DNA from: a virus
Reading direction: 5' to 3' (one strand)
Length of the DNA: 64,000 bases
Virus record (IMG/VR): IMGVR_UViG_3300044712_000083
Coordinates: 1-64,000 of that record
The notes below the pieces were generated by a model. The model was not told the DNA's origin. It was given only the letters and a program-made list of their open reading frames with translations, and made no database searches. A program made the position numbers and the translations under genes. Of this stretch, positions 1,193 to 26,308 are shown piece by piece (position 1 is the first letter of the stretch; the number at the start of each line of letters is the position of its first letter).

Positions 1193-1212
1193 TTTTTCAT
1201 AGTGTATGTTGT

Positions 1213-1250
1213 AAAAAGGGCTAGTCTTATAGATTAGTCCTTTTTTTATT
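1213..1250 (+). terminator. intrinsic terminator
   Basis: AAAAAGGGCTAGTCT-TAT-AGATTAGTCCTTTTTTT. Confidence 0.8.
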
Positions 1251-12999: not shown

Positions 13000-13059
13000 T
13001 ACCCAAAAGGGTATAAAGTTGCACTATAGTGAAACTTTTATACCTAAAAGGGTATAAAA
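12999..13059. repeat. compound palindrome: two ATACC(C/T)AAAAGGGTAT boxes around a central inverted repeat
   Basis: ATACCCAAAAGGGTAT + AAAGTTGCACTATAGTGAAACTTT + TATACCTAAAAGGGTATA. Confidence 0.75.
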
Positions 13060-13091
13060 AAAGCCTCAGAGAGATCTGGGGCTTTTCTTTT
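13056..13091. terminator. bidirectional terminator
   Basis: AAAAAAAGCCTCAGA-GAGA-TCTGGGGCTTTTCTTTT. Confidence 0.75.
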
Positions 13092-13224
13092 ACACTTCCT
13101 TATCAAGTACCAAAGGCTTCATGTGTTTTCGTTCAGAACGAATGATTGTAGACTTTGAGAACTTAGAGAGTGTAGCTCCTAATGAAGAGCAAATTAGCAT
13201 AACAGCAATTAATAGATGTATCAT
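13090..13224 (-). CDS. counter-oriented 44-aa membrane peptide (not in ORF track)
   Basis: MIHLLIAVMLICSSLGATLSKFSKSTIIRSERKHMKPLVLDKEV*, with an upstream TATCTTTG and a downstream terminator. Confidence 0.6.
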   Translation of the reverse strand: MIHLLIAVMLICSSLGATLSKFSKSTIIRSERKHMKPLVLDKEV

Positions 13225-13241
13225 AGTGTATATTATTTCAA

Positions 13242-13249
13242 CAAAGATA
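13242..13249 (-). promoter_or_regulatory. Bacteroidota sigma-A -7 element
   Basis: TATCTTTG fits TAnnTTTG, 17 nt upstream of the ATG; no clear -33 element. Confidence 0.5.
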
Positions 13250-13343
13250 TGTCAAATAATTGTATTATGCTAATAAGAATTGCATTTTACCAAGAACTTG
13301 ATAAAAGTTCTTTATTTATTCACATTTTAACACAAACACAATT

Positions 13344-24174: not shown

Positions 24175-26073
24175 ATGGACTTAGGCTTAGAAGCTCTATC
24201 AAAAATCACTACTTTTAGTAAGTATGCCAAGTATATTCCTAGCAAGCAACGAAGAGAAACTTGGGATGAAATTGTCAATCGTTATGAGGACATGATGATT
24301 GCAAAATACCCACTGATGACACAAGCAATTGTAGAAACAGCAAAGATGATCCGTGAGAAAAAGATCTTACCATCTATGCGTGCTCTACAGTTTGCAGGTC
24401 CAGCAGCTGAGGTGAACAACGCCAGAATCTACAACTGTTGTTATCTTCCTATCGATAGTATTCATAGCTTCTCAGAGTCTATGTTTCTATTATTAGGTGG
24501 TACAGGTGTAGGTTATTCAGTACAAACACACCACGTTAATCAACTACCAGAGATCAAGCGTCCTACAAAGTCTCGCAACTATCTTATAGAAGATTCTATT
24601 ATGGGATGGGCTGATGCTGTTAAGATGTTAATGAAAGCTTATTTAGCTGGAGGAACGATGCCTAAGTTTGACTTCCGTGCTATTCGTGAGAAAGGTGCTA
24701 CATTGGTAACAGCAGGTGGTAAAGCACCAGGTCCTGAGCCATTAAAGCTATGCCTAGCACACGTTCAAGCTATCCTTGATAGAAAGCATGATGGAGAGAA
24801 ATTAACAAGCTTAGAATGCCACGACATCATGTGTCACATTGCTAACTCTGTGTTAGCTGGTGGTATCCGTAGAAGTGCTATGATTTGTTTGTTTGATCAT
24901 GACGATGAGTCTATGATTACATCTAAGTATGGTAACTGGTGGGAAACTAATGAGCAACGTGGACGTGCTAATAACTCTGCTGTATTAAAGCGTGGAGAGA
25001 TTAGTGAAGAACAATTCAAAGCTCTATGGAAACGTGTAGAAGCATCAGGATCAGGAGAACCAGGATTGTATTGGACTAACAACTTAGACTGGGGAACTAA
25101 CCCATGTTGTGAGATTGCTCTACGTCCTTATCAGTTCTGTAATCTATGTGAAGTAAATGTATCTGATGTTGTAGACCAAGAAGATTTGAATGCTCGTGTA
25201 GCAGCAGCTGCTTTCTTTGGTACTCTACAAGCTGGGTTCTTTGACTTCCATTACTTACGTCCTATTTGGGCTAAGACTACACAGAAAGATGCTCTATTGG
25301 GTATTGGTATGACAGGTATTGGATCAGGAGAAATATTGAAGTATGACTTGGAGATTGCTGCTGAGGTAGCAAAGAATGTCAATAGACTTATCTCTGCTAA
25401 GATTGGTACAAACGAAGCAGCTCGTATCAATTGTATCAAACCTTCAGGTACTACAAGTCTTGTGTTAGGTACAGCTTCTGGTATCCATGCTTGGCACAAT
25501 GATTTCTATTTACGTACAATGCGATTCAACAAAAATGAAGATATTGCTGTATATTTGATGGAGAATCATCCAGAGTTATGTGAAGATGATGTGTTACGTC
25601 CTAATGATACAGTTTGTGTACGTATTCCAGTGAAAGCACCAGAAGGTTCTATCTTACGTACTGAGACAGCTATAGATACGCTTGAGCGTGTTAAGCATTT
25701 CTCTGACAAGTGGATCAAGGCAGGACACGTTAATGGTGATAACACTCACAACGTATCAGCTACTATCTCTATTGATAGCAATAGAACATATGACACTATT
25801 CTTCCTAACAAAGGAGCTGGTACATATGATGAGTGGGAAGTTGTAGGTGAATGGATGTGGTTGAATCGTGATTCTTATAATGGTCTATCTGTACTACCTT
25901 ATTGGGGTGGAACATATCAACAAGCACCGTTTGAAGATATTACAGAAGAAGAATATAATAAACGTATTGTTACACTTAAAGAATTAGATTTGACCAATGT
26001 CACAGAAGCAAACGACAATGTTGAATTCGGACAAGTTGCCGCCTGTGCAGGAGGAGCTTGTGCCACAGAATAA
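24175..26073 (+). CDS. nrdJ: class II (B12-dependent, monomeric) ribonucleotide reductase
   Basis: YNCC, GGTGVG, GGIRRSA, TNPCCEI, KPSGT, C-terminal ACAGGAC; no beta-subunit gene nearby. Confidence 0.9.
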   Translation: MDLGLEALSKITTFSKYAKYIPSKQRRETWDEIVNRYEDMMIAKYPLMTQAIVETAKMIREKKILPSMRALQFAGPAAEVNNARIYNCCYLPIDSIHSFSESMFLLLGGTGVGYSVQTHHVNQLPEIKRPTKSRNYLIEDSIMGWADAVKMLMKAYLAGGTMPKFDFRAIREKGATLVTAGGKAPGPEPLKLCLAHVQAILDRKHDGEKLTSLECHDIMCHIANSVLAGGIRRSAMICLFDHDDESMITSKYGNWWETNEQRGRANNSAVLKRGEISEEQFKALWKRVEASGSGEPGLYWTNNLDWGTNPCCEIALRPYQFCNLCEVNVSDVVDQEDLNARVAAAAFFGTLQAGFFDFHYLRPIWAKTTQKDALLGIGMTGIGSGEILKYDLEIAAEVAKNVNRLISAKIGTNEAARINCIKPSGTTSLVLGTASGIHAWHNDFYLRTMRFNKNEDIAVYLMENHPELCEDDVLRPNDTVCVRIPVKAPEGSILRTETAIDTLERVKHFSDKWIKAGHVNGDNTHNVSATISIDSNRTYDTILPNKGAGTYDEWEVVGEWMWLNRDSYNGLSVLPYWGGTYQQAPFEDITEEEYNKRIVTLKELDLTNVTEANDNVEFGQVAACAGGACATE

Positions 26074-26080
26074 GGTTGTG

Positions 26081-26194
26081 ATGTCACGTGAGTTCCTCTC
26101 TAGTAGAGGGACTTGCTGTGGCAACATGTGTAGAGAATGTCCATACTATCCGAGACACACTGCGGGGACAACTCAAAAATATTATTTTCCATAG
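26081..26194 (+). CDS. DUF5522-like Cys-rich peptide
   Basis: FLSSRGTCCGNMCRECPY. Confidence 0.6.
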   Translation: MSREFLSSRGTCCGNMCRECPYYPRHTAGTTQKYYFP

Positions 26195-26223
26195 TGAATT
26201 TAATTTGATTGTGAAAGGAGTAC

Positions 26224-26263
26224 AAATAGCCTAGGTGTTTTACGTCTAGGCTATTTCTTTTTT
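26224..26263 (+). terminator. intrinsic terminator
   Basis: AAATAGCCTAGG...CTAGGCTATTT followed by a T-tract. Confidence 0.8.
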
Positions 26264-26308
26264 AATGAATATTTCGTAAATTTACATATAACAAAAAAGA
26301 ACTAAATC

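Follow-up and report, generated by a model that had tools for sequence, protein, structure and literature searches.

A pre-terminator element of a phage genome with complementarity to the start region of a distant counter-oriented gene: a candidate 3'UTR-derived anti-start RNA

Organisation of the element, its genome and the 44-aa gene

A small open reading frame (ORF) of 56 aa, which encodes a small, putatively membrane-located protein with two hydrophobic segments, lies at positions 1022 to 1192 of the + strand. Its stop codon TAG (1190-1192) is followed by a short 3'UTR that contains an unpaired anti-start element at 1194 to 1212 on the + strand, hereafter site A. Positions 1197-1212 of this element read TCATAGTGTATGTTGT and can pair with the start region of a distant minus-strand gene of 44 aa (gene B), and positions 1194-1206 can pair with the start region of the next gene. 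An intrinsic terminator occupies 1213 to 1249 of the + strand and comprises a 15-pair stem with a 3-nt loop (hairpin 1213-1245) and a subsequent T run. The order of stop codon (1192), site A and terminator is as given in the preliminary description. Downstream of the terminator, a 99-aa gene at 1273 to 1572 on the + strand (gene 1273) has no PHROG assignment, and homologues of this gene are present in the related genomes G1, G4 and G8.

The window, namely the whole stretch of 64,000 nt that was analysed, covers the initial 64 kb of a 114,191-bp virus record that bears direct terminal repeats. The window's genome is designated G0, and its relatives are labelled G1-G8, G10, G14 and L017. The G+C content of the window is 35%, and genes are directed along the + strand up to approximately 32 kb and along the minus strand past this point. 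Nucleotide matches to the window were not found among deposited phages, and no cultured relative is evident, the phage DNA polymerase sharing no more than 33% identity with the deposited ones. Among 100 gene leaders, which are rich in A and poor in G, only 5 carry a Shine-Dalgarno (SD)-like core. The sequence TAnnTTTG is the -7 promoter element of Bacteroidota; the few SD cores, the A-rich leaders and a TAnnTTTG box before the 44-aa gene are presumably the marks of a Bacteroidota-type host. In the left part of the window, the stretch 660-754 scored 48.8 bits (E 4.8e-8, whole model) against the tRNA model of Rfam, and ARAGORN reported no tRNA in the window.

In folds of the transcript, the seed is unpaired and lies directly upstream of the intrinsic terminator, which is how 3'UTR-derived small RNAs are laid out. 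Opening of 1197-1212 cost 0.7-2.9 kcal/mol in fragments of 57-150 nt ending at 1249 and 6.5 kcal/mol in the whole ORF transcript with the same end. The locus, consisting of a small membrane ORF, a short UTR and a terminator, was present in every relative examined; a diverged ORF of 57-58 aa occupies an equal position and layout there, with substitutions that fit the + frame, and the terminator at 1213-1249 is kept, with variants, in all relatives having the locus. The UTR is formed by TTTTCATAG and a subsequent GTGTA-like stretch in G0, G1, G2, G3, G4 and G8, and is unrelated to the TTTTCATAG type in L017, G5, G6 and G7. A 67-aa minus-strand ORF (997-1200) that starts at site A was considered as a real gene and rejected; it is closed after 4-10 codons in G4 and G1, and the + frame instead shows conservative changes in the relatives. 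Searches of known RNA families gave no match at site A or site B (the start region of gene B), and searches of PHROG gave no family for the 44-aa protein, the 56-aa protein and five neighbours.

Several minor observations concern stretches of the site-A type. The TAG within TTTTCATAG is out of frame in G0 and in frame with the small ORF at five site-A loci of relatives (L083, L085, L084, L095 and L239), where it lies two or three sense codons past the TGA or TAA stop; this TAG may be a former stop codon or a back-up stop. A third copy of TTTTCATAG, followed by a hairpin, is located at 114016-114024 of the G0 record, at the right end and outside the window, and reads as the reverse complement of an ATGAAAA start; it may mark where a minus-strand gene begins. 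A 37-aa Cys-rich + strand ORF (26081-26194, with a CCGNMCREC stretch) fills the gap after a 648-aa gene that ends at 26073. The stop codon of this ORF is the TAG of TTTTCCATAGTGAAT, a site-A-like stretch before a strong terminator (26187-26265) that is kept in relatives G2 and G3. The element at 26187 has TTTTCCATAGTG in common with site A, and the TAG there may be no more than the stop of the 37-aa ORF.

Gene B occupies 13090 to 13224 on the minus strand, with its start codon visible as CAT at 13222-13224 of the + strand, and is the only credible minus-strand gene within the first 32 kb. The gene is real and conserved: seven related viral contigs encode a protein with 91-95% identity to it, and most of the DNA differences are silent. 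The product consists of a hydrophobic N-terminal segment and a basic tail that is unusually conserved, and might serve as a membrane anchor that has a specific partner in the cytoplasm, or as a short lipoprotein. The protein family comprises 66 clusters at 90% identity, all of 41-50 aa and none carrying a name. Alignment of 16 members revealed that C12, G16, S20, K21, R29, R32, H34, P37, L38 and D41 are invariant; in the family, as represented by gene B and loci L255-L272, the invariant Cys follows 11 hydrophobic residues and an R-x-x-R-x-H-x-x-P-L-x-x-D tail is conserved. No relatives of the 44-aa protein were found in bacterial and archaeal species genomes.

Site B (13221 to 13236, minus strand) covers the predicted 5' leader, the AUG and the first base of codon 2 of this gene and is the putative target of site A; the + strand reads TCATAGTGTATATTAT there, and the opening energy of the site is 1.4 kcal/mol. 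A TAnnTTTG box of the Bacteroidota -7 promoter type, TATCTTTG, is found at 13243 to 13250 on the minus strand, 17 nt upstream of the ATG. The box takes the form TATCTTTG or TATTTTTG in B leader types 1-3 and TAnnTTTC in type 4. The transcription start of gene B is predicted from the position of this consensus box. On the other side of the gene, a two-way terminator at 13055 to 13091, acting on both strands and composed of an A run, a 9-pair hairpin (13062-13083) and a T-rich run, serves the + strand unit and the 44-aa gene and is invariant in 8 relatives. The B cassette has its own promoter box and terminator, both conserved; it is present in some close relatives, missing from G3 and L017, and resembles an accessory insert. 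Between the B promoter box and the next + strand gene, a block of approximately 50 nt (13277-13330) is almost invariant in 8 relatives, the flanking genes of which differ. This block contains a perfect 8-bp inverted repeat at 13292-13312 (AAGAACTT-GATAA-AAGTTCTT) and may be an operator or promoter element for the divergent region.

Complementarity within one genome and among relatives

Comparison of 1197-1212 with 13221-13236 confirmed an identity of 14/16, and at both mismatches site A has G where site B has A, as the preliminary description had reported. Owing to these G-versus-A differences, site-A RNA and the minus-strand mRNA could be joined by 14 Watson-Crick and 2 G-U pairs, and the complementarity of all 16 positions to the leader and AUG of the 44-aa mRNA was verified. 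Within a single genome, this match is not beyond chance. The shuffled control that had been proposed for it went against the match: the 16-mer had 3 hits at no more than 3 mismatches versus 1.67 expected, and 23 of 100 shuffles reached 3. Every intergenic segment was also scanned against every start region for ungapped helices of Watson-Crick and G-U pairs with a score of at least 33, and helices of A-B quality numbered up to several per genome. Five such helices occurred in G4, one of them being the A-B pair of G4 itself, and the best other pair in G0 scored 32. In G14, a coding region can form a helix of 17 bp (score 36) with the B leader by chance. The two sites were further considered as copies of a multi-copy motif or promoter, and this candidate was rejected: the degenerate motif TCATA-N0-3-GTRTA had 4 copies versus 4.7 expected, and TCATACACA had 3 copies versus 1.3 expected. 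The count of the degenerate motif thus indicates that sites A and B are not members of a common repeat.

Across relatives, the A-B complementarity appears to exceed chance. When the B start region was compared with both strands of the whole genome, site A ranked first in G0 (score 33, next 25), in G4 (33, next 25) and in G1 (29, next 26); these three genomes represent two sequence versions. In the reverse scan from site A, B was the best partner in the same three genomes, and no start region of the other ORFs of at least 45 aa scored above 26 in G0, 24 in G4 and 23 in G1. The B leader occurs in five types, with type 1 in G0 and type 2 in G1, G2 and G4. Types 1 and 2 differ by length changes immediately upstream of the ATG, and the differences of site A between G0 and G1/G4 mirror them, thereby keeping a long helix in each genome: 16 bp in G0 (-20.3 kcal/mol), 14 bp in G1 (-17.4 kcal/mol) and 17 bp in G4 (-19.9 kcal/mol). 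The co-conservation that had been put forward as a check was thus borne out as co-variation between two phage lineages. Duplex energies were -20 to -21.6 kcal/mol for cognate sites versus -10.3 to -11.9 kcal/mol for sites swapped between G0 and G1/G4. In a crude simulation of 20,000 trials, in which either site was changed randomly by edits like those observed in kind and number, a helix of at least 33 was retained in 1e-4 and 5e-5 of the trials. All four distinct A/B differences are G in A and A in B and give G-U wobbles, and wobble pairing is still possible with the target variants from metagenomes (A>G in L248 and C>U in L253). In both lineages, the helix spans from approximately 2 nt past the transcript start predicted from the box to the first base of codon 2. 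With no more than two independent sequence versions to compare, the co-variation comes down to a single set of changes within a short stretch of low complexity; additional pattern scans over viral contigs yielded no new site-A versions.

In favour of the pairing, the homologous UTR of L017, in which B is missing, lacks the motif although the gene and terminator are retained. In other relatives, the two elements do not match or occur together consistently. In G2, B is present and a G>T change in site A leaves 10 bp (-13.5 kcal/mol). In G3 and G8, the TTTTCATAG-type UTR is kept and B is missing (G3 is a 30% fragment that covers the expected place of B, and G8 is 88% complete), which points to another reason for keeping site A. 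Both loci are present in G7 (complete), G5 and G6 and show no complementarity (6-7 bp), and B is present with its partner absent in G10 (91% complete) and G14 (complete). It follows that the 44-aa gene can do without site A.

Alternative explanations for the match

We consider it improbable that the match is without function. On that view, a pre-terminator stretch rich in G and U would resemble an ordinary CA-rich leader with its AUG by coincidence or through a short duplication of long ago, and the co-variation would be an alignment artefact of short low-complexity sequence in two lineages only. This explanation agrees with the expectation of A-B-quality matches within a genome, with the inconsistent co-occurrence of A and B, with the damaged site A of G2 and with the TACACTATG-type leaders, which are common among unrelated phage contigs. 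If the pairing is not real, a 16-bp start-codon match in one AT-rich phage genome weighs little. The explanation does not sit well with site A being the top partner in three genomes, the gap of approximately 9-10 kcal/mol between cognate and swapped duplexes, the simulated retention of approximately 1e-4, the wobble compatibility of every A/B difference, and the lack of excess copies of the degenerate motif (4 versus 4.7 expected). A link at the DNA level, in which the sites are direct repeats bound by one DNA-binding protein or substrates of recombination, would also relate A to B; in one form of it, site B would be an operator at the B transcription start and site A a roadblock ahead of the terminator. 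The repeats are indeed direct, site B overlaps the predicted transcription start of the 44-aa gene, and sites co-evolving with one protein would likewise stay alike. This link is nevertheless highly improbable: the sites are non-palindromic in relatives and exist in two copies only, mirrored length changes are unlikely inside a protein site, and a one-way G-versus-A pattern would be meaningless for a DNA site.

Masking of the next gene in cis is judged rather unlikely, and it is a serious rival to trans pairing. In a read-through RNA, 1194-1206 would pair with 1266-1278 (TACATTATGGAAA, the start region of gene 1273, + strand), or 1203-1209 (GTGTATG) would pair with CATACAC (1252-1258, + strand), with the terminator as the tip and the next gene masked; such masking may replace the trans model or act beside it. 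The 7-bp pairing across the terminator had been noticed in the preliminary description and is present in the MFE fold of the read-through RNA (1150-1330). The longer pairing, absent from that description, forms a helix of 13 bp (11 Watson-Crick and 2 G-U) that was likewise seen in the MFE fold. The structure could be opened by a ribosome that finishes the upstream ORF, the stop of which lies 2 nt before the element, and thereby melts the helix (translational coupling), or it could be avoided by a transcript begun within it, as happens in T4 for genes e, soc and 49; the match to site B would then be a by-product of two alike start regions. For site A, the start region of gene 1273 ranks 1 of 53 among + strand start regions and second overall, behind B. 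Opening of the seed costs 9.4 kcal/mol in the read-through RNA versus approximately 1-3 kcal/mol in the terminated RNA. The cis pairing amounts to 10-11 bp in G1, G4 and G8 and to 7 bp in G2 and G3, whose next gene differs; TTTTCATAG is retained in G3 and G8, which lack B, and pairs over 7-10 bp with the next gene there. Masking of start regions is documented for T4 (PMC3014915). Against these points, the A-B helix is the stronger one wherever both occur, the energies of cis versus A-B being -14.1 versus -20.3 kcal/mol in G0, -8.8 versus -17.4 in G1, -12.3 versus -19.9 in G4 and -8.4 versus -13.5 in G2. The cis helix also leaves 1207-1212 unused, the 3' half of site A that co-varies with B, and its score in G1 (19) is unexceptional among start regions. 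No TAnnTTTG box was found within 1213-1272, inside the cis structure, which may nevertheless carry a phage-specific promoter. Masking by pre-terminator segments as a genome-wide rule was tried and rejected; 11 other terminator-containing gaps rank 3 to 59, and the site-A gap alone of the 12 stands out.

Proposed action in trans and related systems

Our best explanation, held tentatively and at somewhat less than even confidence, is that site A acts in trans as a 3'UTR-derived anti-start RNA, represses the 44-aa gene and is restricted to one clade of these phages. Transcripts terminated at this locus, or 3' fragments cut from them, would carry at their 3' end an unpaired G/U-rich seed, then the terminator hairpin and a U tail, the anatomy known from 3'UTR-derived small RNAs. 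The seed would pair in trans at the extreme 5' end of the mRNA from the 44-aa gene, which stands alone in its orientation, and the duplex would extend over the entire predicted leader and through the AUG to the first base of codon 2. Because start regions here are without SD and depend on an open A-rich leader, this duplex should block ribosome loading, and it would perhaps destabilise the B mRNA. Early transcription from the left end would in this manner turn down B, which would run from its own host-type promoter. The complementarity, the open state of both sites in folds, the conservation of the target gene and the co-variation between lineages are observed, and we infer the production of both RNAs, their ends, the repression and its timing. 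Site A could also serve two start regions, as a cis gate on the next gene and, as a 3' fragment, as a trans silencer of B; this combined role is doubtful. If true, it would constitute a phage-encoded antisense circuit in a Bacteroidota-type phage, and the natural G0 and G4 versions would be two non-cross-reacting pairs.

The trans antisense reading of the preliminary description thus holds in its real complementarity, conserved target gene, unpaired seed by the terminator and co-variation, and fails in its likening to a type I toxin-antitoxin pair. B occurs without a site-A partner in G7, G10, G14, G5 and G6, and the A-type UTR occurs without B in G3 and G8. The element is not at the putative toxin locus and lies 12.0 kb from B in G0 and 11.2-18.4 kb from it in relatives. 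Two defining type I features are therefore lacking, given the 12-kb distance and the separate occurrence, and a putative site-A RNA would have, in the manner of the antisense RNAs of such systems, complementarity over 16 bp to the B leader and AUG. Sites A and B accordingly do not appear to be a type I pair, and the regulator would be lineage-restricted and not an obligate antitoxin. One source on the phylum range of type I systems lists none for Bacteroidota (PMC12390103). RalR/RalA, a type I toxin-antitoxin pair of the rac prophage, has a 16-nt complementarity that is thought to inhibit translation (PMC4041452) and resembles A-B in being encoded by a phage or prophage and in the 16 nt over which a trans RNA is complementary to its partner mRNA. 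RalR is a shown toxin (DNase) and RalA has shown, Hfq-dependent antitoxin activity, whereas a toxin and an antitoxin in A-B would be putative; furthermore, the A-B RNA is located 12 kb away within the 3'UTR of another gene, and its parts do not co-occur across relatives.

If real, the pairing would mean that a phage uses the tail of an early mRNA as a small RNA against its own gene in a host group without SD pairing, and the natural G0-type and G4-type versions form a ready compensatory set. The target is of interest in itself, as it belongs to a widespread family of 44-aa membrane proteins with an invariant cysteine and a conserved basic tail. The kind of regulation is already known, with the RalA/RalR pairing among its examples: trans-acting small RNAs such as FopS and GibS of Bacteroides thetaiotaomicron occlude start regions (PMC11697453). 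Site A shares with them a short unpaired seed adjoining a terminator hairpin, pairing at the translation start of the target and predicted repression, in a host group without Shine-Dalgarno use (the host type being inferred here). It differs from FopS and GibS in being phage-encoded, in having as its single strong target a phage gene on the opposite strand, in being a predicted RNA, and in its G/U-rich seed with a CAU anti-start.

The cis helix has its own counterpart. Start regions of the T4 genes e, soc, 49 and I-TevI are sequestered in long transcripts (PMC3014915), and there, as in the pairing of 1194-1206 with 1266-1278, an upstream read-through segment base-pairs around the start codon of the following gene; unlike in T4, the helix of site A spans a terminator hairpin, has no promoter found inside and competes with a stronger trans partner. 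[quoted passage not shown] Site A resembles icaR in the pairing of a 3'UTR motif with a ribosome-binding region and differs from it in that SD is not involved and the partner is the start region of another gene.
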